Below are positions 3,077 to 47,004 of a stretch of 64,000 bases of DNA, one piece after another (position 1 is the stretch's first letter; each line of letters opens with the position of its first letter). The notes beneath the pieces were generated by a model, which saw only the letters and a program-made list of their open reading frames with translations, did no database searches and had not been told where the DNA came from. Made by a program: the position numbers and the translations under genes. The DNA is from a virus. The DNA lies in IMG/VR virus record IMGVR_UViG_3300021168_000018, one strand, 5' to 3'.

Positions 3077-3194
3077 ATGCGTGACTCACCCCTTGCGTTT
3101 TCATTAGATGTCCATGAGTTTTCTTAGCTCTTCTCTTAGCTCTCAAATCACTCCATGTAGGTGCATTGAAATGTATTGCTTCAGCCAGCCTCAT
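2994..3194 (-). CDS. Small Cys/His-rich protein
   Basis: ATGA overlap with the TerL ATPase stop; C-terminal HACAH...CTKKSCTCPCTLH. Confidence 0.4.
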   Translation of the reverse strand: MRLAEAIHFNAPTWSDLRAKRRAKKTHGHLMKTQGVSHACAHGNHNNCTKKSCTCPCTLHASHYPA

Positions 3195-4450
3195 GCTGCT
3201 TTCTCCTCTACTTCTGGCAAGAGATAGTGGTAGCCGTCTTCTTCGTTGAGGTACAATTGCTGAGAATCAAAAAAGTAGAACCAATCTTTCTTGAAAATTG
3301 CTCCCTCACCTTCCTGTATCTCATTCTGCTTCTCTCTGGAAAATGAAGTGATTCCCTGAGTCACACGGTCCATGAGCAATTCTCGGATGCCCCATCCAAA
3401 CACCATCGGCTTCTTAGTTTCGGTATCTATCAGTGGCTCCCCAAAATTGTTCACCTTCTCTGTGGCTGGCCAAAGCACTTCATAATCGTCTGTGAGCAGT
3501 TCCACGTCCACGATTTGCTCTTCCGCCTTGACGTCCTGTAGACCGCGCACGTACCTTCCTGTGTCCGTGATATAGACCCATCCCTCGATTTCCTTGTCTG
3601 GATTCTTTGGGTCGGGTATCATCGGATACTTGATGATGGCTTTCTCTACGTTGTGCTTCCACGTCCGTGTTTCAAGCAATGTATTGTATAGATCTCGTCT
3701 GTTTTTCCTAGTTCCAGTAACTCGAAACTGAGTTGGCGGTTCGCGTAGATTCCAGACCGTGCCCCAGAACCAGTTTTCGATGGTTGCCATGCGTTCGATG
3801 GTCTTTGTGTTTTCATCGTCGAGTGGGTCATCGGCATTGATTGTCTCAAAATGACCGCCAGTAATACCTCCAAGCACTCCGACTTTCTCATAGGTGTGGT
3901 CCTTCTCTACGCTGTCGTGGATATTTCTCTTACAACTGAATCTGCTCTTGAGCCAATTGTTCGGGTCGCGTATATCCCCAAAATCTTCGTTGAGATAATG
4001 GTTCTCTTCTATAGTGACTCGGACCTGTTCGGCGTATTTTCCAGCCATCTCATCGGTCTTGGAAATTTGCAGGAATCGGTACGTGACCGCTTCTAAATGG
4101 TTCTGTATCAGGTTTTCGTAGATGCGGTAGAGCGGCTGTCCATACGAGAATATCCAAGATTTGCCATGATCGCGTGGTGCCAGTTCTAGCAGGTATTTCA
4201 CGCTCCAGAGTTGCAGCCAGCGACGCTGATGCTCTGGCAACCGAAATCCAAGGTAGTAAGTGAGGAAGAACTCCGGGCTATGCAGGACCAGTTGATGGCG
4301 GAATTCTCTAGACGTGTATTGCCTGATGAGAGTCCGCAAGCCGTTGATGCCTTGACCCTTGGCTTGCGAGAGCAGGTCAGCTAGCTTTTTCTTGGTCGAC
4401 TTCTTGAACTTCGGAATTGTCGGCATTTGGAGCAGGAGCAGGCAACGCAT
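3191..4450 (-). CDS. Terminase large subunit, ATPase domain only
   Basis: Walker A ELAPRDHGKS, Walker B INADDPLDD, coupling motif VTGTR, C-terminal FSREKQN. Ends without a nuclease domain. ATG at 4426 is an alternative start. Confidence 0.85.
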   Translation of the reverse strand: MRCLLLLQMPTIPKFKKSTKKKLADLLSQAKGQGINGLRTLIRQYTSREFRHQLVLHSPEFFLTYYLGFRLPEHQRRWLQLWSVKYLLELAPRDHGKSWIFSYGQPLYRIYENLIQNHLEAVTYRFLQISKTDEMAGKYAEQVRVTIEENHYLNEDFGDIRDPNNWLKSRFSCKRNIHDSVEKDHTYEKVGVLGGITGGHFETINADDPLDDENTKTIERMATIENWFWGTVWNLREPPTQFRVTGTRKNRRDLYNTLLETRTWKHNVEKAIIKYPMIPDPKNPDKEIEGWVYITDTGRYVRGLQDVKAEEQIVDVELLTDDYEVLWPATEKVNNFGEPLIDTETKKPMVFGWGIRELLMDRVTQGITSFSREKQNEIQEGEGAIFKKDWFYFFDSQQLYLNEEDGYHYLLPEVEEKAA

Positions 4451-14882: not shown

Positions 14883-14895
14883 ATGAAACGCTATT
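14883..14895 (-). promoter_or_regulatory. Conserved upstream motif AATAGCGTTTCAT, copy 1
   Basis: Exact 13-mer, 18 nt before the GTG at 14864. Confidence 0.7.
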
Positions 14896-17560
14896 ACTGC
14901 AAAAACTGTTTTGGAATGATAAACTGGCCGGGTATCTTCGTGTGTTCAAGTTCCACCATGTCGCCCATGTTCTTGTCGCCTATCGCACAGTCTGTGTCGA
15001 GTGGCACGTTCAATTTCCAGCCAATCGTCTTCAATAGGTATTTTCTATCGCTCATGTAGAAATGCAGTTTCGGCACCACGAGTCTCAACTCTTTACGATA
15101 GGCATCCAAATAGACAGCGTCGTAAACGTAATTGATTACCCTAGTTTTCATCTGATTTCTCAGGAGCCAGTGCTGCATTCTGTACGCTGCGATAAGGTTA
15201 ATATCGGATGCATCCCCTTGTATCGGCGCGTTGATTCCCTCTCGTATTGCGTGGTTCGCACGACCTATGTCCTCATCCGCCGCTTCTGGTAGTCTTCTGT
15301 GACGATTGTAATGTGAAACGGACAGGCAGTCTTTCCTGATGCGTTCCTGCTCAGCTTCTAGATATGCTGCGATGCCGTGATATTTCCCAAAGTACCGGCT
15401 CTTGAATTCTTCGGCTTTTTGCAATGACCAGCCAAAATCCGCTGCGAGCGCTTTGGCGTCACGACCGTACACTAGACCGAATGACACAGCGTTCTTACTA
15501 TAGCTCCGTAGCTCCTTCTGTTTCTCAGCGGGCAATTTGTTCCATCTCTTTTCAGTGTACTCGAACGCCGCTTGCGCTCCCTTGGCGTGCGGGTCCTCGC
15601 CAGCCATGAACTCGGCAATCATCACTTTGTCTTTGGCCCTGTCAGCCATCAAGCGCAATTCGATTTGCTTAGAGTCTTGCTTGACTATGACATTGCGTTC
15701 GCTGCTCGGTACAAACTGGCTCATCAGCTCATCTGTCAAAGAGCTGCGAGCAGGCAGGTTGTACATATTCGGGTCTTGACATGACGGTCGGCCAGTCCTG
15801 GTCCCATGCGGCAAGTGACTACCATGCACTCTGTTGTCTGTGCCTATCCACTTCGTCGGGAGCGGCAGGATATATTTCGAGTGTGCCGAGGAATACTTGC
15901 CACGTTCTATCATCCGTTTAAGGATTGGACTTTTGTGCTTCTGCTGCAACTCCTCGATTATCCAGCGCTTGACGGAGTCTAGCCCGGAATCAGTTTCATC
16001 CAGCGACTCGTACTCCAGCACCTCAAACAGCAATTTTCGCCGGATGTCTGGAGAGTTCAGGTTGATTGGCTTTTTGTTTTTCTTGTAAATCTCGAAAACT
16101 TTCGCCTTGAAATTCGGCGGTTTCTTTTTGTAGCCTTGGACATGTTCGTAAGCGTCCGCAAATGATTTCTCGTCGGCTTCTTTTTGAAGCTGTTTGATTT
16201 CTGGATAGCTATAGAGTTTTTCGTCCAGTTTGCTGATGCGGTCCCTGTAGAGCACGTCTAGCTGGCTGTTACGCTTTTCACTGGCTTTGATACCGACCAC
16301 TTGCATCATCATACAAATCCAACTTATCGGCATCAATGGAAACATTAGTGGTTTCTCGAACAGCCCTTCCGCTTTCAGCTTCTTTCTCTGATAGAAAAAC
16401 AGGCGGCGCGTCGCTATGCAATCGTCGCCGTTGTATGGATACAGGATGTCCGTAGGGATTAGATTGTAGTTAGCTCTAGCTTCTGGATTGGTCAGCTTGT
16501 ACTGTTCCAGCATCTGGTCGTATGATGGCATGTCTACGCGGCCACACCACTTGTCTAATCCATGCAGTCCTCGCAGTTCGTTAAGAGCGTAACTCGCCAG
16601 CATCCCATCGAAATATGCGCCGGTCTTGTGGCCTTTGCCGCCGAGCCAGATATTGTGCTTGACTCCTACATATCCCACGTCGTAGATGCCGTTCCACACG
16701 AGCCATTTCAGCCCTGGATACTCCCAGACTTCCTTGACGCCTTCTAACACTTCTTCTGGACGCAGCTTGCAGCCCTTTAATCCTACTCTAGCGTGGACCG
16801 GAAATTCCCACGAGTGTTCGTTTGTGTCAGCTACACCTATTACCCCTGTCTCTGCTTTCGCCTTTCTTGAAAATGGTGACAGCGTGCTGGCTTCTATGTC
16901 GGTAGCCGGATATTCGCATTTCTTAATTGCATCCACGGCCTCTTGCAGCATCTTCCTATCTAGAATTGTCGTGTGGACGCGGTCTGACTTTGCGTGTATC
17001 GACCTGGAAGTGGCGGCACGTTTAGCGACTCGCAATGCATCAAGGAAGGATTTTCGAGTAGCAGGAGTGTTGTTTCGCAGCAAATAGGCGGGATGGAACA
17101 TGCAGACATATTTCAGCCTGCCTATATCGATGACTTGTCCATGTAGTTTAAGGATACCGGATCTATTGAGGATTGATTTAATTGCTGAATTTCCAATGAG
17201 CACGACAACTTTAGGACCAGTCGCTCTGATTTCCCTGAGGATATGCGGTCGACAATGTGCGATTGCGTTGGGAAACTTGCTAAGGTTATTTTCTGGAGGT
17301 CGACATCTCACCACGTTCGTAAAACGGCATTTGTCAATTGGGATTCCAGCGTCTTCAATACTTTGTCTAAGTTCACTACCGCTCTCTCCAGCAAAAGGGT
17401 ATCCTTCATCATCTTCCTCCCGACCCGGAGCCTCTCCAACGAAGAGCCATGTTGGATTCTTGCTGCCTTCACCATTCATCACGGGATGCTGACACAATTT
17501 GAATAGACCGCATGGTTCGCAGAACGAGTCTGGTTGCCGGATTACGTTAAGACTTAGCAT
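14894..17560 (-). CDS. polA: Family A DNA polymerase with N-terminal family-4 UDG domain and 3'-5' exonuclease
   Basis: UDG: CEPC...VGEAPGREED, TNVVRCRPP, MFHPAYLLR. Exo: TDIEAS, YNGDD. Pol: GTRTGR, DSKQIELR, KNAVSFGLVYG, NAPIQG, VYD. Confidence 0.95.
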   Translation of the reverse strand: MLSLNVIRQPDSFCEPCGLFKLCQHPVMNGEGSKNPTWLFVGEAPGREEDDEGYPFAGESGSELRQSIEDAGIPIDKCRFTNVVRCRPPENNLSKFPNAIAHCRPHILREIRATGPKVVVLIGNSAIKSILNRSGILKLHGQVIDIGRLKYVCMFHPAYLLRNNTPATRKSFLDALRVAKRAATSRSIHAKSDRVHTTILDRKMLQEAVDAIKKCEYPATDIEASTLSPFSRKAKAETGVIGVADTNEHSWEFPVHARVGLKGCKLRPEEVLEGVKEVWEYPGLKWLVWNGIYDVGYVGVKHNIWLGGKGHKTGAYFDGMLASYALNELRGLHGLDKWCGRVDMPSYDQMLEQYKLTNPEARANYNLIPTDILYPYNGDDCIATRRLFFYQRKKLKAEGLFEKPLMFPLMPISWICMMMQVVGIKASEKRNSQLDVLYRDRISKLDEKLYSYPEIKQLQKEADEKSFADAYEHVQGYKKKPPNFKAKVFEIYKKNKKPINLNSPDIRRKLLFEVLEYESLDETDSGLDSVKRWIIEELQQKHKSPILKRMIERGKYSSAHSKYILPLPTKWIGTDNRVHGSHLPHGTRTGRPSCQDPNMYNLPARSSLTDELMSQFVPSSERNVIVKQDSKQIELRLMADRAKDKVMIAEFMAGEDPHAKGAQAAFEYTEKRWNKLPAEKQKELRSYSKNAVSFGLVYGRDAKALAADFGWSLQKAEEFKSRYFGKYHGIAAYLEAEQERIRKDCLSVSHYNRHRRLPEAADEDIGRANHAIREGINAPIQGDASDINLIAAYRMQHWLLRNQMKTRVINYVYDAVYLDAYRKELRLVVPKLHFYMSDRKYLLKTIGWKLNVPLDTDCAIGDKNMGDMVELEHTKIPGQFIIPKQFLQ

Positions 17561-33580: not shown

Positions 33581-35062
33581 TCAGTTCACCGCCTTGCTGA
33601 TAGTGGCCTTCCCATTCCCGTTCGGCTTGGGAGTTGGAGGGACTTTATTCTCCGTCATGAAGTCGGCAGGCACGGCGTTTTCGTGCCCGTGTTCTAGTGA
33701 GAGTTGGAGCATTTTGTTGACGTCGTCATCGGTGCAATTTGCGACGTGGATGCGGTTGAGGCCCGTTTTATCCGGCGACAATATGAACATGTCGCCCTTG
33801 CCTAGCAGGTTCTCTGCTCCACGCTGGCCTAGGATGGTCTTGCTGTTCACGGCGTCTGGCATTCTGAACGCGGCGCGACCGAGGAAGTTGACCTTGATTT
33901 TGCCAGACACGACATCGACCGACGGACGCTGCGTGCAAGTGATGACGCAGATTCCAGCGGCGCGGGCCATCTGACTGATAGAGGCCATCCGTTTTGTGAA
34001 CTCCTTTTTCTCCTCCAGCACGATTTCAGCCATTTCGTCGATGACCAGCACGATGTAGTACCATTTCTCGGCCATCTTCTTGGCTGCCTGCTCTTCCAGC
34101 ATCTTGCGAACGTTGCCTTCCTTGGCTTTAAGCGCGGCTTGCTTGAGTTCGTCCGCTTCTTTCTGGAGGCGGTCGTTGAGTTCCTTGATGTTGTTGACCT
34201 TCAGCACATGAAGGTTAGCGGTGCGCCGTTTCATTTCCTGGATAAGGGTTTCCATGACGTTGAGGCAGCCCCAGACCGTGAACTCTGGCGGCATCAGCAT
34301 GTGAGGCAGCCCCTTGAACCTGAACAGCTCCACTTGCTTCGGGTCCACGAACGCGAACCGGAGTTCGCTTGGAGTGCGGATTTCTGCCAGACTGGTAATG
34401 ATTTGCTTGAGCAGTGTAGATTTGCCGGTCCCGGTAGAACCGCCGACCAGCATGTGAGGGAATGTAGCCAAGTCTTCCACGTATGGAGCGCCTTCCGACG
34501 TGAGCCCGAAGTTGAGCGGGAGCGCCATGTCGTAGCGATGCGCCAGAGTGTTCTTGAAGCAGGACTCATGCGTGACAACGAGCCTTTCTCCGTTCGGCAT
34601 GGAAACGCCGACCACTGGCTTGCCGGGGATGCGGCGGATTGTGACCGTCTCGACCGACAATGCCAGCGCGAGGTCCTCATTGAGGGACTTGAGCCTCTTG
34701 ACTCGCGTGAACCGGTCAGGCGTGAATAGGTACTCCGTCACGACCGGCCCTTTGACTATGCCGGTCACTTGACCCGGACAGTCGAAGTTTTTGCAGGACT
34801 CCGTTATCATCTTGACGATTTCTTCCTGCTTCTTGCCGACCGGGTTGAGTTCGCGTGGGAACCGTTTCTTGCCGTCTGGCTTTTTCTGGCCTTCCAACTT
34901 GAACGGTGACGTCGTGCTGCCACAGAGCGGACAGTGACGGCGCTTTGTGAGCAGGTCCTTGTTAACGATGCGGCAATTGCGACAGATTTTGTACTCGCTG
35001 ATTTTGTACATCATTTCTTCAGACAGTTTTTGCATGACTTGTCTCCATTTGTTCTCGCTCAC
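33581..35062 (-). CDS. FtsK/SpoIIIE-family DNA translocase lacking membrane anchor and gamma domain
   Basis: Alpha domain GPVVTEY...EDLALAL...IPGK, GGSTGTGKS, VIDEMAE, ARAAGI...TQRPS; N-terminal CxxC...CxxC. Confidence 0.88.
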   Translation of the reverse strand: MSENKWRQVMQKLSEEMMYKISEYKICRNCRIVNKDLLTKRRHCPLCGSTTSPFKLEGQKKPDGKKRFPRELNPVGKKQEEIVKMITESCKNFDCPGQVTGIVKGPVVTEYLFTPDRFTRVKRLKSLNEDLALALSVETVTIRRIPGKPVVGVSMPNGERLVVTHESCFKNTLAHRYDMALPLNFGLTSEGAPYVEDLATFPHMLVGGSTGTGKSTLLKQIITSLAEIRTPSELRFAFVDPKQVELFRFKGLPHMLMPPEFTVWGCLNVMETLIQEMKRRTANLHVLKVNNIKELNDRLQKEADELKQAALKAKEGNVRKMLEEQAAKKMAEKWYYIVLVIDEMAEIVLEEKKEFTKRMASISQMARAAGICVITCTQRPSVDVVSGKIKVNFLGRAAFRMPDAVNSKTILGQRGAENLLGKGDMFILSPDKTGLNRIHVANCTDDDVNKMLQLSLEHGHENAVPADFMTENKVPPTPKPNGNGKATISKAVN

Positions 35063-35526: not shown

Positions 35527-35976
35527 CTACCGCGTGGCCTTTTGAATCCGGCGTTCTGTTTCCCTGAGTTGCTTCTTGGTCCACGTCCGTGCTGCCGGAT
35601 GCAGCAACCAGAACACCGTTCTACCATCAACGTCGAGTGATGAAAAATATTCGAAATCAATATTCTTATCGGAGAGTGCATAACCAGACTCTCTGAATGT
35701 TTTCCTAGCTACAGCGCCACAAACTAGAATTATGCTTGGATTCAAGCGTGTCAGGTTTTCATGGAGCCATTTTGCGTCCGGCTTTCCGTGGTGGTTGGCA
35801 GACGTGACTAGTTCGCGGCAGCAATTCGTCACGACCAGCCGATGCGCGTTTTCTGGCCCTACGAATTTGTAGAGTCGCTTGCCAGATTTGTTATGCGGGT
35901 TGATTTTGAAATATCGTGGAGCGCGGCCTTCCCTGTCGCCCCACATTGTTTCGAGGACTGCGACGATGAAACTCAC
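35527..35976 (-). CDS. Minimal uracil-DNA-glycosylase-fold protein
   Basis: VTNC, PSIILVCGAVA, LLHPAAR pattern. Confidence 0.45.
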   Translation of the reverse strand: MSFIVAVLETMWGDREGRAPRYFKINPHNKSGKRLYKFVGPENAHRLVVTNCCRELVTSANHHGKPDAKWLHENLTRLNPSIILVCGAVARKTFRESGYALSDKNIDFEYFSSLDVDGRTVFWLLHPAARTWTKKQLRETERRIQKATR

Positions 35977-36353: not shown

Positions 36354-36469
36354 TGGCCTTGTGAAGTCCGGCGCACGATATAGTGTTTGCGTGCATCGGA
36401 TTGTGAATTGACGGTGAACCTGCGAACGTGGCCTTGCGTTTCCCGTTTCAGGATTGCGATTGGAGCCAT
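36275..36469 (-). CDS. SWIM zinc-finger protein
   Basis: YIV...WQCSC...CKHI. Confidence 0.6.
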   Translation of the reverse strand: MAPIAILKRETQGHVRRFTVNSQSDARKHYIVRRTSQGQWQCSCRHWIFHRGKCKHIIAVKERV

Positions 36470-36673
36470 TTAGCTCACCGTCCCAAACGTTGTGTAGGTC
36501 ACTGGCCTATCATGCTTTGTTACTGGACGCCAGCGACCTAATATGCCGCCCGAATATTTCAACTCGGATTTCTTTTCGGCCACGGCATGTCTATCGCACC
36601 AATCCCAGTGTGTGCCATTACCGAATTGGCGTTGCGTTGCTGGCCTATTGCATCCTGGTTGATTGCATTTCAT
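36470..36673 (-). CDS. Small hypothetical protein
   Basis: RBS AAGGAAG; CNQPGC...WCDRH. Confidence 0.45.
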   Translation of the reverse strand: MKCNQPGCNRPATQRQFGNGTHWDWCDRHAVAEKKSELKYSGGILGRWRPVTKHDRPVTYTTFGTVS

Positions 36674-37363
36674 GTTACCACTTCCTTACTCCGCCATTTC
36701 AGCGGCGAGGATGTTCACTGTCATTGTAGACACGTGACGTTGTCATTCAGGCGTAAACTCAACCTCGCCCGCCATCGTTGTGAACATCCACGTCGCTGGA
36801 GAAGAAACTTTCCTAGAAACTCATGCGGTATCCGACGCCTGATGCCTTGCGGCATATTCCTAGTCCCGTGTAAGGGGACGTGCGGTATGTCGGGCCTGAT
36901 TCCTTCTCAAGCGAGATGAAATTGTTTGTTCGAAACTCCCATGTCAGCTTGATTTGCGAAACCTTGCGATACATTTAACGTCCGTTCAGTCGGACGGTGG
37001 TAGTTCTTTTACGGGTCCACCACGCCTAAACCTAGGAACACCTGACTGGTAGCGACCACAGAGGGAATTACGCTGACCGAGGGTCCTACACGTTCAATCA
37101 ACCATCCTCTCGATTACCATGCGGCATTGCATGGCTGAATTCTTAAAATCCGATGGAATATTGAACGACTGCCTTGCCTGAGGACGCTGAGCGGCCAACC
37201 AGATTTCCGGCTCGCTACATTGTTCTTACCGTGTGTCGAGTTTTTACGTGCCACTAGCACTGGACTCTAGCACTAAGACCCCGAGCGTGTCCGCGATGGG
37301 TCGTAGAACTTTGTAGGTTGCCTACTTTTCTGGATTGCTGGCTGTAACCCTTAGCGGGGGAAA

Positions 37364-37657
37364 CTAGTTCACCCGCATCTCGCCATTGCGCCACCGGAGT
37401 TTCATGTGGAAACTCCGATGACATTTATCATGGGCGAGAGTTTTGTTGCCCTTGCTGTCGTTGGAGTGGTCCAGGTCCTTGTGATGGATTGTGATAGTCC
37501 TTGAAATTGGACTGCCCTGCCCATCGCCGTCCTTGGCATAACTCTCATACCCTAGCAAGGGTTCCTTGCAGAAGTAACAGTGTTTGTCTCGCAGGAAAAA
37601 ATGGAGGAGTTCCCGACACTTCCGCAATTCTTGGCGTGTAGATTTTCGCATTGACAT
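37364..37657 (-). CDS. Small HNH endonuclease
   Basis: CYFC, TIHHKDLDHSNDSKGNKTLAHDKCHRSFH. Confidence 0.8.
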   Translation of the reverse strand: MSMRKSTRQELRKCRELLHFFLRDKHCYFCKEPLLGYESYAKDGDGQGSPISRTITIHHKDLDHSNDSKGNKTLAHDKCHRSFHMKLRWRNGEMRVN

Positions 37658-38098
37658 TGTACCCTCGTGGGGGTAAGTTTACCCCGCAAAAGGTTACAGC
37701 CACGTCTCTCGTGTTAGGCCAGCGTTCTCAGCTTAATCCCCAATAGGTTGCACGGTGTTGCTATACCTTATGCCTCCCCGCTACTCGTCAACTCCTAGAG
37801 CCTCACGGCCACACTTTTGCGGGTTACGCTACCTTATATAGTGCCTTGCAGCGCGGTAGCTTACAGCGCGGTACTAGCGCACGTCTCCCAGTACATTGTA
37901 CTGGCACCTACTAACTTTCAGCTTTTCGTCCCTAGTGGCCTTAATGCCTTAACCTTGTTTGGGGTCCTGCCCATAGCATTTTGTGTGCGCTACAGGGGTC
38001 AGACTGGCGTACCAGTTTCTGCCTATCAGTGGCCTATCCCCACTAGTGCCGTGTCTCACGACGCGCACGTTTGTCGGACTTTTTGCTGGCCTAGTTAT

Positions 38099-38134
38099 TT
38101 TTCAAAGAACAGCGGTTTGCGGTAGTGCAAACCG
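38099..38134 (-). promoter_or_regulatory. boxB-like hairpin followed by rrn-type boxA (TGTTCTTTGAAAA)
   Basis: 8-bp stem CGGTTTGC/GCAAACCG, then a sequence resembling the TTCTTTGAAAA boxA of many bacterial rRNA leaders. Confidence 0.55.
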
Positions 38135-38154
38135 TACTACTAAACAACACAAAC

Positions 38155-38183
38155 ATTGTACCCTAAAACTAGGCAGTACGCAA
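38155..38183 (-). promoter_or_regulatory. Sigma70-type promoter TTGCGT-N17-TACAAT
   Basis: Near-consensus hexamers with exact 17-bp spacer, pointing into the ncRNA candidate. Confidence 0.7.
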
Positions 38184-38186
38184 GGA

Positions 38187-38498
38187 CTATTTTGACCTTT
38201 GTTGGCGCTCTTTCCACGAGGTCAAAATCCTGCGAGCCGTTTTCGCCTCCGTTTTTAGGTAGGGTAAAACGGCTTCCAGCAAACGGACCGCTTTTCGGCC
38301 CTGAATGCGGTACGACAGCCGCTCTGGGTCGCCGTTCGAATACCACGACCCACCGAATTCTTTTTTGAGCAATTTTGGCAGATTGCCCTTCGTCCTGAGG
38401 CGCATCTGGAAATTGCCTGTTTTCAGGACGTGGAATTTCATACGCTCGTCCAGCGCTCCAGCCAGATATGCCAGATCGCGCTCTTTCCTGAATTTCAT
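38187..38498 (-). CDS. Single-motif LAGLIDADG-like protein, catalytic motif degenerate
   Basis: LAYLAGALDERM (R/M where D/E-G is usual), FGG, and a LLEAVLPYL helix. Confidence 0.65.
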   Translation of the reverse strand: MKFRKERDLAYLAGALDERMKFHVLKTGNFQMRLRTKGNLPKLLKKEFGGSWYSNGDPERLSYRIQGRKAVRLLEAVLPYLKTEAKTARRILTSWKERQQRSK

Positions 38499-39484
38499 AC
38501 TTCCCTCGTCATGAACTCAATGCGCCGTTTTTGGTTGTAGCCTTCCGCATGACGCACGAGCTGCCACGCTCTTTCCCGTCCCAAAGAGTTGATATCTTCG
38601 CCGTTAGGGATATTGGCAATTTTGATGTGCGGTATGATGCCCTTGAAACGGTCGGCGATTTCTACCGTGTCTCTGCGTGCGTCGCCATCTAATGCGATGA
38701 CCAGTTCTTGGACCCACTTTTCATACCTGAGGACATGGTCACGCTGGACATCTGACAGAGACTTGCCTAGGATGCCCATTATCAATGTTCTACCATGTCC
38801 CAGTATTTCCAGCGTGAGCACATTGATTGCAGATTCCACCAGCACAATGACGTTCGGCTTGCGTGTGCCGCCGATGCAATAGACCAAGTCTGATTTCTTA
38901 CTGTACTTGGGATTCCAAAACTTTAGCTCCCGGTCCTTGAATCGCCGGCCTTGCCAGTAGACCACGTCGCCTTCGTCATTGAAAATTGGGAAGATGATAT
39001 ATCCCCAATACTTCCCGCTCGTACAATATCCTATCTTCGCTGTGTCCACTATCCGCTTTGGGATATCTCGGCGCTCTAGATAAGCATAGATATTTTCTCT
39101 GTCTTGCTTCGGCAGTTCACTAACGAAATTGAACTCTTCTGGCAGCTCCACCTCTGCATCTTCGTCTTGACGTATTGTTTCTGGGATGACGTGCTCGAAT
39201 CCGCGAGTATTGAACCACGCCCTGATTCTATACTCTGTGACCCCGCCATGTCCCACATACCATCTACAGCTTGAGTGGAAACAGCACCCGACGCCCTTTT
39301 CTGTATTCCATGCGAATTTCTTTTCGTGGTCGCCACACGCGGGGCAGTCTGCCTTGAATCCCTCTCTGGTCTCGAACACTTGGCTGAAGAACCCTGCTAT
39401 GTCACTCATAGTCTTTCCCGTCTCCACAGCAGAATCGCCATAGGATATTTCGCTATAGCTAGAGAAAGCAGTTCCCATCTCCAT
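38495..39484 (-). CDS. DNA primase (Zn-binding + TOPRIM)
   Basis: CPAC...CFHSSC, YWQGR, LVES, LDGD, GEDIN. Confidence 0.85.
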   Translation of the reverse strand: MEMGTAFSSYSEISYGDSAVETGKTMSDIAGFFSQVFETREGFKADCPACGDHEKKFAWNTEKGVGCCFHSSCRWYVGHGGVTEYRIRAWFNTRGFEHVIPETIRQDEDAEVELPEEFNFVSELPKQDRENIYAYLERRDIPKRIVDTAKIGYCTSGKYWGYIIFPIFNDEGDVVYWQGRRFKDRELKFWNPKYSKKSDLVYCIGGTRKPNVIVLVESAINVLTLEILGHGRTLIMGILGKSLSDVQRDHVLRYEKWVQELVIALDGDARRDTVEIADRFKGIIPHIKIANIPNGEDINSLGRERAWQLVRHAEGYNQKRRIEFMTREV

Positions 39485-45390: not shown

Positions 45391-47004
45391 TTATCCAGTC
45401 TGGGCTACGGAAACGAAATTGTACCCTGGAGTTCCAAAGTTTAGCAGAGGCACAGATACGGTTCCAAGCAATCCGGTTCTAAATTGGCCAGAAGTGTACC
45501 CTGAATCTGGATTGGGTGTGATTCCTGTGAGAGGACTTCCAAGGGAAACTGTATTGTGAACGTTGTCCAAAGTGACTTTGTAGAGAGCCACGACTAGGCT
45601 GTTATTGACGTCCGTGAAGATATTGAACATTGTGCTCCCACTAGACGTTTTGTCAGTCAGGAGGGCACAGAGTTCTGGCGGTCCTATAGGGAAACTGGTA
45701 TTGGGGTTTCCAGAGAAGAGATAGTCTACTACAGAGCCGTCCGCATAGTTCGTTGTGAAGAATTTGATGGCCGTGATATTGAAAGAAAGGTCGTCTATGA
45801 AATAAGTCACGCAGGAGACTTTCGTGCCTATCATTTGAGACGCTGGAGCCAGTATGTATTGCTGTGTTCCACCGCCGCTAGGCTCTATGGTCGAAACAAA
45901 GGAAAACGATTTGTCGTAGAGCAGCGGGCCTATTTCACCAGCCGGATGCGCTCCCACTATCCCCACAGTGGCATCGAACGTTCCGTTCCTGCGTGAACCG
46001 CTGACTTTAGTTGTGTCTTGTATCCAGCCACTAGTGATACCAGAGCCGGAAATGACAGACGAGCCGCTTCCATTTGAAACGCCATGCACCGTTTCGTCGG
46101 TAGCTAGAACTGCTCTGCTGCCTGATTCGAAGGAGATGTAGTTTCTGACTGTGGACGCCGTGATGCTTCCGAGTGGACCTGCGAGCTGCATCTCCTTGTC
46201 TAAGAATTCTATAGAGAACAGGAACGGGTCATTGGTCAGAAACAGCGCTGGAACGCTGTACTGAGACGTACCGAAACCGAATCCGATTCCACCACCTTCG
46301 AACCAGTTTGCATAGAGGTTCCAAGAGAGAGCCAAGCCTTGCACAAGAAACTCAGATTTCAGTGTCGCTTGCAAAAAGAATCCATTCGATATCCCAGGTA
46401 TCGGCCCTGAAGATTGTAGCTTGCCTGCTCCCAAGTCGTAGATTCTGTATCTGTAGTTGATAGTGGATGGTGGAGTCGGCCAAGAATTGGAAAATCCAGT
46501 GCTGCCGAAACCTTCAGCGTAGGCCAAGTACCTCCCATCCGGAGATAGTGTCAAGCAATCTGGCTGAGAGAAATTGGAAGGCGGAGAAGCGGGAGTCGGT
46601 AGGACGAGACGATAAATCTTGTTACTGCCAGAATCCTGAAGCCGGATATAGACTGGAAATACACCGCTTCGCACCGTGGTATCGATTTCAAATGCGGCTA
46701 TGCGGAATTTGGAAGGACTGGTGAAGAACGGTGGCTTGTCTAGTGGAACTATTCCCGGTGCCGGACTAGTCGGAATCACAGTGTACGTTCCACCGTCGCC
46801 GAGCACGACTATGACTTGCTGCCCTTGGACAACTGGATACGTCGGCAACGCTTGAATAGCATTTCCATCTAGTAAAGCTAGACAGGTCCCATCAGGGTTC
46901 AGAGCGGTGACTACGCCTAGCCTGTACTTGGAAGGATTGGTCCAACCGATTCCTGTCAGTTGGTCCTTGATGGCTTGCTTGATTTTATCTCTGAGACTGC
47001 TCAT
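45391..47004 (-). CDS. Tail-tip / receptor-binding protein candidate
   Basis: N-terminal beta module shared with 47001-47252; propeller-like LSPDGRYLAY; position after tail genes. Confidence 0.5.
   Translation of the reverse strand: MSSLRDKIKQAIKDQLTGIGWTNPSKYRLGVVTALNPDGTCLALLDGNAIQALPTYPVVQGQQVIVVLGDGGTYTVIPTSPAPGIVPLDKPPFFTSPSKFRIAAFEIDTTVRSGVFPVYIRLQDSGSNKIYRLVLPTPASPPSNFSQPDCLTLSPDGRYLAYAEGFGSTGFSNSWPTPPSTINYRYRIYDLGAGKLQSSGPIPGISNGFFLQATLKSEFLVQGLALSWNLYANWFEGGGIGFGFGTSQYSVPALFLTNDPFLFSIEFLDKEMQLAGPLGSITASTVRNYISFESGSRAVLATDETVHGVSNGSGSSVISGSGITSGWIQDTTKVSGSRRNGTFDATVGIVGAHPAGEIGPLLYDKSFSFVSTIEPSGGGTQQYILAPASQMIGTKVSCVTYFIDDLSFNITAIKFFTTNYADGSVVDYLFSGNPNTSFPIGPPELCALLTDKTSSGSTMFNIFTDVNNSLVVALYKVTLDNVHNTVSLGSPLTGITPNPDSGYTSGQFRTGLLGTVSVPLLNFGTPGYNFVSVAQTG

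Follow-up and report, generated by a model that had tools for sequence, protein, structure and literature searches.

A small nuclease gene that stands alone in an otherwise gene-free part of a phage genome raises the question of what that part of the genome is, and whether the nuclease belongs to it or has settled there. The case considered here lies in IMG/VR record IMGVR_UViG_3300021168_000018, of which 64,000 nucleotides (nt) were analyzed (this whole stretch is called the window). Following a LAGLIDADG-like gene, 1513 nt of the minus strand (38186-36674) contain a single credible open reading frame (ORF), encoding an HNH protein of 97 amino acids (aa). We consider it probable that this gene is an optional passenger in a hairpin loop of a previously undescribed structured non-coding RNA (ncRNA) of a tailed phage, about 1.2 kb in size (about 1.1 to 1.3 kb without the ORF), and that it is a homing-endonuclease-like and probably mobile cassette. 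This degree of confidence applies to all parts of the reading taken jointly.

The stretch has no conserved coding frame and is conserved as structured RNA in 14 related phage loci. Apart from the HNH gene, no minus-strand ORF in it exceeds 56 aa. When all of its stop-free peptides were compared by tblastn, only short matches were returned, in several frames and on both strands, over a conserved RNA motif; hidden coding was rejected on these grounds.

An earlier note on this DNA had proposed that a 25-nt inverted repeat loops out the HNH ORF, so that the gene sits in a terminal loop. Both points are borne out, and the hairpin belongs to a larger structured RNA. An inverted-repeat search found arms of 27 nt that are 89% complementary and 310 nt apart (Table 1), forming the longest inverted repeat within 36650-38200. 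The helix consists of 10 bp, a 4x4 internal loop, 6 bp, a 1x1 mismatch, and 4 bp, and its paired 3' arm starts at 37364, which is the G and last base of the TAG stop codon. The duplex between the two flanks is predicted at -57.7 kcal/mol, compared with -30.8 +/- 4.5 kcal/mol for shuffled right arms (z -6.0; 0 of 200 as good). The stem is beyond chance because equivalent stems of different sequence are present at five other HNH loci and at two loci with another ORF. These stems, of 15 to 25 bp, close the HNH ORF in L006, L009, L011, L040, and L036 (L-numbers denote related loci) and enclose a different ORF in L164 and L174. Wherever the hairpin holds an ORF, its arms have kept their complementarity despite sequences that vary from locus to locus; the mean duplex energy is -50.4 kcal/mol for arms of one locus and -32.6 +/- 6.3 kcal/mol for arms combined across loci. 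The closing stem is long with cargo and short without it, and its role is most likely to preserve the fold of the RNA. In L011 (3001-3354; 117 aa) and L036 (143-514; 123 aa), the HNH ORF is longer and reads through the right arm, such that a C-terminal tail of the protein is encoded by structural RNA sequence.

The genomic contexts of ten HNH relatives were compared with the window locus. All ten present a primase gene, usually an ORF of 72 to 113 aa, a long gene-free stretch, the HNH gene, and FtsK-like or other genes, and two arrangements can be distinguished. In the window locus, L006, L009, L011, L036, and L040, about 310 to 480 nt of non-coding sequence (counted from the boxA element described below) precede the HNH gene and about 700 to 800 nt follow it, and in these six loci the gene lies inside the hairpin. 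In L035, L038, L037, L039, and L002, all of the non-coding sequence (about 0.9 to 1.3 kb) comes before the HNH gene, which is thus downstream of the RNA. Segments 3' of the gene in the first arrangement match segments 5' of it in the second; it follows that both share a single element and that the gene has shifted its position relative to it.

Three further loci (L041, L164, and L174) were found by primase and RNA-motif searches, without the HNH protein as bait. At the site of the ORF stem, L041 has an empty hairpin of 9 bp with a 5-nt loop, followed by the same AGCA...AAA context as in the window, and L035, with its HNH gene downstream, has an ORF-less hairpin of about 36 nt. In L164 (896-1051) and L174 (reverse strand; 860-1018 of the reverse complement), the hairpin instead holds a Lys/Arg-rich ORF of 51 to 52 aa with a strong Shine-Dalgarno (SD) sequence, in a shared hairpin frame made up of an outer stem, CNGGG/CCCNG as inner stem, and a local hairpin upstream of the SD; the two basic proteins have no significant BLAST similarity to each other or to the window. 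The records behind L041, L164, and L174 (G001, G002, and G003) contain no HNH-family member by a search that did recover the family in two positive-control records, G004 (E 3e-50) and G005 (E 3e-26). Alleles of the RNA without the ORF, which the earlier note had thought worth seeking, are therefore at hand as the short hairpins of L041 and L035 and as three records without HNH, and they favor its suggestion of a mobile HNH cassette that invaded the RNA.

The sporadic presence of the gene, with occupied and empty sites among relatives, is a feature expected of homing endonuclease genes. More distant HNH relatives, at 36 to 45% identity, are located in gene-dense loci without the boxA or the 3' motif of the RNA; Pfam analysis of the neighbors of distant homologues was uninformative, and a scan of the collections with a single primase protein found nothing. 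HNH proteins are 66 to 78% identical in all pairs, while the adjacent primases share 41 to 49% (66% between the window and L011). From this flat HNH identity against a varying primase identity, it follows that HNH similarity is decoupled from phage relatedness. The RNA is independent of the HNH gene, but this HNH clade occurs nowhere except at the RNA, as is typical of a site-specific selfish gene with its harbor.

Evidence that the element is an RNA comes from covariation in the 3' domain. RNAalifold applied to an 11-locus alignment of this domain yields 23 pairs, of which 16 are changed on both sides, several including G-U, and the G-U pairs among the covarying pairs favor an RNA over a DNA structure. 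In total, 97.1% of cells are paired, compared with 78.2% for shuffled partners (0 of 1000 reach the observed value) and 32 to 45% for slid partners. The long terminal hairpin has 17 aligned pairs in 11 loci, 14 of them changed on both sides. The helix closing the 3' motif differs in sequence while keeping its complementarity in the window, L041, L164, L006, L040, and L039, as exemplified by GAGAAG/CUUCUC (window), GGCAGUCAC/GUGACUGCC (L164), and GCAACCU/AGGUUGC (L039). A smaller 3' hairpin shares GCCGC with the terminal hairpin, and the layout is the same in relatives; in L039, the gene that follows it is the HNH gene itself. The 3' motif is duplicated in the window, with CUAGGAA at 36863-36857 and 36816-36810. 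This nested or tandem duplicate (36911-36799) is shared by L011 and L009, and the motif is single in the other loci.

Measured against column-shuffled alignments, alifold z scores were -10.4 for the whole RNA of L035/L038; -3.7, -6.5, and -5.2 for 3' domains; -3.8 (window/L011), -2.1, and -1.0 for pairs of 5' domains; and -0.3 to -1.8 for coding controls from the same loci. As a single sequence, the 3' domain has an unremarkable stability (z -2.3). Global MAFFT alignments of the spliced RNAs were unreliable and misaligned the boxA. A scan of genome contigs for the 3' motif gave four chance matches, in coding DNA, and a pattern scan for the terminal hairpin gave chance matches plus the known members only. 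A 14-nt, 86% complementary long-range match connects 36874-36887, in the first copy of the 3' motif, with 37875-37888 in the 5' domain, and could represent a tertiary or domain-closing pairing.

At its 5' end, the RNA begins with a hairpin followed by GYTCTTTGAAAA, a boxA of rrn type, in the order familiar from rrn leaders. A hairpin of different sequence precedes boxA in most relatives inspected, and pairs of TTKxxx/TAnnnT hexamers similar to the promoter-like pair of the window are located upstream of this unit. The 5' end of the element carries the pattern G[CT]TCTTTGAAAA, or a form with one mismatch, in 12 loci; the L036 locus is truncated on this side. The gamma-proteobacterial boxA consensus is GYTCTTTAANA (PMC5725501). 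The window element, GTTCTTTGAAAA, matches it at 10 of 11 positions, with G in place of A at position 8. The natural reading would be that hairpin and boxA open a long untranslated transcript and serve there as a Nus-factor antitermination signal. A scan of the collections with the boxA pattern returned at least 115 chance loci, none of them syntenic.

No known RNA family was recognized. Rfam gave no match for the whole window at gathering thresholds or for 36400-38600 with the E limit raised to 10; for ten homologous loci searched to E 5, it gave only two chance-level matches, outside or unrelated to the element; the GOLLD, ROOL, and OLE covariance models had no match in the window or the ten homologues. 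The window had no blastn match among 50,697 phage records, ARAGORN found no tRNA or tmRNA gene in it, and the RNA was not found described in the literature searched.

The passenger is an HNH protein by motif, as judged from its sequence, but a divergent one. Its signature comprises C27-x2-C30, H58-H59, N71, H76, C79-H80, and H84; among 28 close relatives, C27, C30, H58, H59, N71, H76, and H80 are invariant and C79 and H84 nearly so, and the catalytic and metal-binding residues of the superfamily are thus present together with Cys/His zinc ligands. The protein matches PHROG 1271, labeled "HNH endonuclease," at E 1.3e-4. It has no Pfam match at E 1 or better and does not reach the PF01844 threshold; 10 of the 28 relatives match that family weakly (best E 2.2e-4). 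Its AF2 model, a confident one (pLDDT 82.8), has an N-terminal helix followed by two strands and a long helix, a putative beta-beta-alpha unit, and Foldseek returned only weak matches (E at least 0.24, TM about 0.4) to Cas9 HNH domains, the Gme HNH nickase, and TasH. A profile search of Protein Data Bank sequences gave nothing below E 0.1, and one of 1.84 billion representatives gave 274 clusters, mostly of 80 to 130 aa, matched over their full length and stand-alone. The N-terminal helix (MRKSTRQELRK) is basic and strongly conserved.

The earlier note had further suggested that alternative pairings of the left arm form a switch controlling HNH translation, an idea that is plausible in part. 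An alternative partner upstream exists in the window as described: 37814-37826 pairs with 37680-37692, and its core is a perfect 10-mer complement. It is not conserved, with an upstream partner of at least 8 nt found only in the window and L006, at differing positions. In L006, 2668-2697, just past boxA, is complementary to the left arm (2950-2976) in two blocks of 10 and 8 nt, and this arm thus has a strong alternative 5' partner placed elsewhere than in the window. What is conserved is the local hairpin beside the SD, with compensatory changes. Its equivalents in L011, L036, L164, and L174 occur regardless of the ORF that follows, and it covaries in five loci, where the fourth pair is G-C, U-A, or C-G. 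The SD itself is engaged by the local fold in four of eight loci, where it pairs with a CUCC-type stretch in the left arm. Competition among the closing stem, the local hairpin, and the ribosome-binding site is therefore plausible as a form of translational control.

A 12-mer that the note had placed at both the RNA promoter and the HNH start, AGGGTACAATGT, does occur exactly twice in the window (37654-37665 and 38153-38164), but it is not conserved in relatives. In the HNH-side copy, a 4-nt spacer separates the SD from the conserved ATGT in the start context, and most simply the 12-mer is an overlap of the -10-like TACAAT with the SD/ATGTCAATG start context. A copy with one mismatch, AGGGTACAATTT, is present at 45416-45427 (minus strand) in a short spacer between two genes, and promoters of this phage may repeatedly use GGGTACAAT as their -10 context.

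Table 1. Coordinates of the RNA, its cargo gene, and neighboring genes in the window
Feature	Position	Strand	Remark
Promoter-like TTGCGT (38183-38178), 17-nt spacer, TACAAT (38160-38155)	38155..38183	minus	upstream of RNA; predicted
boxB-like hairpin, 8 bp	38113..38134	minus	directly 5' of boxA; scan: stem then T-rich run
boxA-like element GTTCTTTGAAAA	38099..38110	minus	only exact match in the 64-kb window
5' domain, about 400 nt	37703..38098	minus	no conserved frame
Alternative partner of left arm, core CCCGCAAAAG	37814..37826	minus	13 nt, 92%
5' (left) arm of ORF-closing stem	37676..37702	minus	
Local hairpin GGGGUAA/UUACCCC	37670..37685	minus	overlaps top of left arm, just 5' of SD
SD-like GAGGG of HNH ORF	37662..37666	minus	GGAGG or GGAGA in relatives
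HNH ORF, 97 aa	37364..37657	minus	conserved start may be second ATG at 37651
3' (right) arm of ORF-closing stem	37339..37365	minus	overlaps stop codon
3' domain with motif UCAGG-hairpin-AUACCGCA-(variable)-CUAGGAA	36799..37338	minus	nhmmer match 36911-36780, E 7.6e-16
Helix closing the 3' motif, GAGAAG/CUUCUC	36908-36903/36804-36799	minus	
Long terminal hairpin, base arms 36798-36780/36718-36700	36700..36798	minus	inverted repeat
Small 3' hairpin (36707-36691), then SD and ATG (36673-36671) of next ORF	36671..36707	minus	
DnaB-like helicase	40916-39558	minus	
DnaG-like primase	39484-38495	minus	
103-aa ORF with LAGLIDADG-like motif	38498-38187	minus	overlaps primase stop
Stand-alone UDG-like gene	35527-35976	minus	near RNA
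FtsK/SpoIIIE-like ATPase	33581-35062	minus	
TerL, canonical	3191-4450		about 33 kb from HNH

When the locus is placed into its genomic context, the window is a segment of a tailed-phage genome with virtually every gene on the minus strand, including those for TerL, a tape-measure protein, a family-A DNA polymerase, an SbcC-like ATPase, and a helicase. The polymerase (14894-17560, minus strand) has an N-terminal domain of the UDG superfamily. Downstream of the element on the minus strand are small ORFs and genes for a SWIM protein, a UDG-like protein, and the FtsK-like ATPase, the last of which comes directly after the RNA in several relatives (L006 and L041). The idea that the FtsK-like protein is the packaging ATPase and the RNA a pRNA analogue was dropped, as a canonical TerL is present. 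On the upstream side, the motif of the 103-aa ORF reads LAYLAGALD, with YLAGLFDGRG in its counterpart in L041; the ORF matches PHROG 5046, labeled "HNH endonuclease," at E 5.8e-5 and has no Pfam match. ORFs of 72 to 113 aa occupy this position in most readable related loci, HNH-less ones included, and L009, L037, and L039 have none. This ORF may be a domesticated or second homing-endonuclease-like gene adjoining the RNA.

Several observations weigh against an optional passenger in a new ncRNA. The three records without HNH are only 62 to 72% complete. All close-clade HNH genes with readable context (11 loci including the window; proteins 49 to 76% identical) are linked to the RNA, and a functional partnership would predict such perfect linkage too, as it would the strong constraint under which the protein stands. 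The 5' domain shows no excess stability as a single sequence (z -0.15) and gave no consensus fold in block and seven-sequence alignments, and compensatory changes counted on single-sequence minimum free energy structures of L035 and L038 were no better than slid controls. A consensus promoter scan made no call here, with only three of six -35 positions matched; the hairpin with the T-rich boxA could alternatively be a weak terminator of the primase operon; and the promoter, transcript ends, processing, and Nus binding are features that we infer. If a partnership is assumed, HNH and RNA might form a ribonucleoprotein (RNP) nuclease, RNA-guided or RNA-scaffolded, with a layout like that of HEARO/IscB-omegaRNA or TIGR-TasH and with the hairpin as a dedicated expression site for the protein partner. 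It would fit that the close-clade genes lie inside the RNA or immediately after it, that the basic N-terminal helix of the model could bind nucleic acid, that the weak structural neighbors include Cas9 and TasH HNH domains, and that the very basic small protein encoded in the L164/L174 loop could be an RNA binder. We nevertheless regard an RNP nuclease as distinctly unlikely, and the HEARO- or OMEGA-like version raised by the earlier note is unsupported: the RNA is present without any HNH gene in three records, distant HNH relatives occur without the RNA, and the HEARO model (RF02033) has no match in the window or ten relatives. The note had seen no RuvC or PLMP domain, and indeed neither these, a bridge helix, nor any other added domain was found in this mostly stand-alone family of 80 to 130 aa; a guide-like variable segment, which it had proposed to look for among homologues, could not be defined. 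It is also conceivable, though quite unlikely, that the RNA is a new functional class (an RNP scaffold or ribozyme) whose hairpin is an expression slot for its own partners, the HNH or the small basic protein, with RNA and protein acting together, for example, as an RNA-scaffolded or RNA-targeted nuclease, and with translation coupled to folding.

The element could also be a long structured leader acting in cis on the downstream operon (SWIM, UDG-like, and FtsK-like genes), with HNH as one more gene of the transcript. No intrinsic terminator follows it, the SD of the next gene is within 20 nt, the GCCGC common to the small 3' and terminal hairpins would offer alternative pairing beside that SD, and boxA would shield downstream expression from Rho. 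We hold a cis-acting leader to be unlikely, as known leaders need far less than an element exceeding 1 kb that has conserved helices, a conserved internal motif, and GNRA and UUCG loops, and the downstream gene varies by locus between an FtsK-like gene, a small ORF, and HNH. Alternatively, the region might act as DNA, for instance, as a replication origin whose many inverted repeats are DNA hairpins or cruciforms, an idea that suits its position in a replication module between DnaB/primase and FtsK-like, UDG, and PolA genes. That is very unlikely when the G-U pairs in the covarying helices are strand-specific, only the transcribed strand carries boxA and the tetraloops, and there are neither iterons nor an AT-rich tract (GC content about 0.51). 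Least probable of all, and to our minds hardly credible, is a self-splicing group I or group II intron or its relic, with the HNH homing endonuclease in a peripheral loop. Points in its favor would be the looped-out position of the ORF in a hairpin of structured RNA, the co-occurrence of HNH and LAGLIDADG-like genes at the locus, and a weak sequence match to a group II maturase En domain among the solved structures (not significant, E 0.45). Models of the group I core (RF00028) and of group II introns (RF00029 domain V/VI and D1-D4) have no match at E 10 in the window or at E 5 in ten relatives. No host gene is interrupted: the upstream ORF ends in a stop codon, followed by promoter-like hexamers and boxA, and the genes downstream, which vary by locus, each have an SD and a start of their own. 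A group II intron would also have about 100 nt after the loop ORF instead of about 690, and the ORF encodes a 97-aa HNH protein and no reverse transcriptase.

The new ncRNA with an optional cassette has its closest analogy, as a comparison of layout, in phage group I introns with endonuclease ORFs looped out of their hairpins, such as T4 td/I-TevI and the SPO1 and SP82 DNA polymerase introns with the HNH enzymes I-HmuI/II. The common ground is a small, optional endonuclease ORF (of HNH type in the latter) in a terminal hairpin loop, a long stem that would restore the fold, and RNA structure around the ribosome-binding site. In contrast to those introns, this RNA has no Rfam intron match and no split gene, it carries promoter-like hexamers and boxA at its 5' side, and the same hairpin can hold an unrelated small ORF. 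T-even phages possess free-standing homing endonucleases of the Seg and Mob families, of which MobE is an HNH enzyme. Like these, the HNH gene is a patchily distributed small nuclease gene between conserved genes, with varied insertion points and a similarity decoupled from flanking genes; unlike them, it lies within a structured RNA gene or adjoins one instead of occupying an ordinary intergenic spacer, and its cleavage and homing are putative. The OMEGA systems (HEARO or IscB omega-RNA) similarly encode an HNH-containing protein beside a large structured RNA. However, IscB has about 400 to 500 aa with RuvC, bridge helix, and PLMP and its RNA beside the ORF, whereas the window protein is an HNH domain of 97 aa encoded inside or 3' of an RNA that also occurs without it. 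HK97 gp74-type HNH proteins of about 100 aa are likewise stand-alone phage proteins, which assist terminase; the window HNH gene is not beside the terminase genes.

As a large, elaborately structured phage-borne ncRNA, the element resembles GOLLD and ROOL, the large ornate RNAs of phages and prophages (PMC12286853). It differs from them in its lack of an Rfam match, its greater length, its boxA leader, its location in a replication module rather than near tRNAs, and its capacity to host ORFs. Leaders of rrn operons and CRISPR arrays carry boxA for Nus-factor antitermination (PMC5725501, PMC4807359), and the window RNA has the same succession of a hairpin and boxA (GYTCTTT...) at the 5' end of a predicted long untranslated transcript. 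Unlike in those leaders, this boxA is phage-borne and stands before a new RNA, and its binding of Nus factors is putative.

Taken together, these features suggest how the locus may work. Behind the primase and LAGLIDADG-like genes, the RNA would have a promoter of its own, and its 5' hairpin and rrn-type boxA, judged by sequence and position, could recruit host Nus factors, letting RNA polymerase cross more than 1 kb of untranslated RNA to the genes behind without Rho termination. The 27-nt stem, conserved as observed here, would unite the ends of the 294-nt ORF so that the RNA folds around its insert, as intron hairpins do around endonuclease ORFs, and the alternative contents of the hairpin are seen directly among the relatives. 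The HNH gene is most likely a homing-endonuclease-like selfish gene for which the RNA gene would be both target and safe harbor, and it could use transcription of the RNA for its own expression. Translation of the ORF would probably be gated by competition between the closing stem on one side and the local hairpin and the anti-SD stretch of the left arm on the other. As for the RNA itself, our guess would be that it is an ornate phage RNA akin to GOLLD and ROOL, acts in trans, and is set free when the transcript is processed at the long 3' hairpin.

If this reading is true, the RNA would form a new family among the few very large structured RNAs known from phages, and at about 1.1 to 1.3 kb it would exceed GOLLD and ROOL in size. 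As far as we have found, it would also be the first such non-intron RNA to combine an rrn-style boxA leader with a hairpin that docks optional protein genes, and the boxA predicts a reliance on host Nus factors. The loci provide a natural series of alleles, comprising an empty hairpin, one with HNH, one with a small basic ORF, and one from which HNH has moved downstream. Such a series could reveal how selfish endonuclease genes colonize RNA genes without destroying their fold, how translation is reconciled with RNA folding on one molecule, and what roles large phage RNAs may have.

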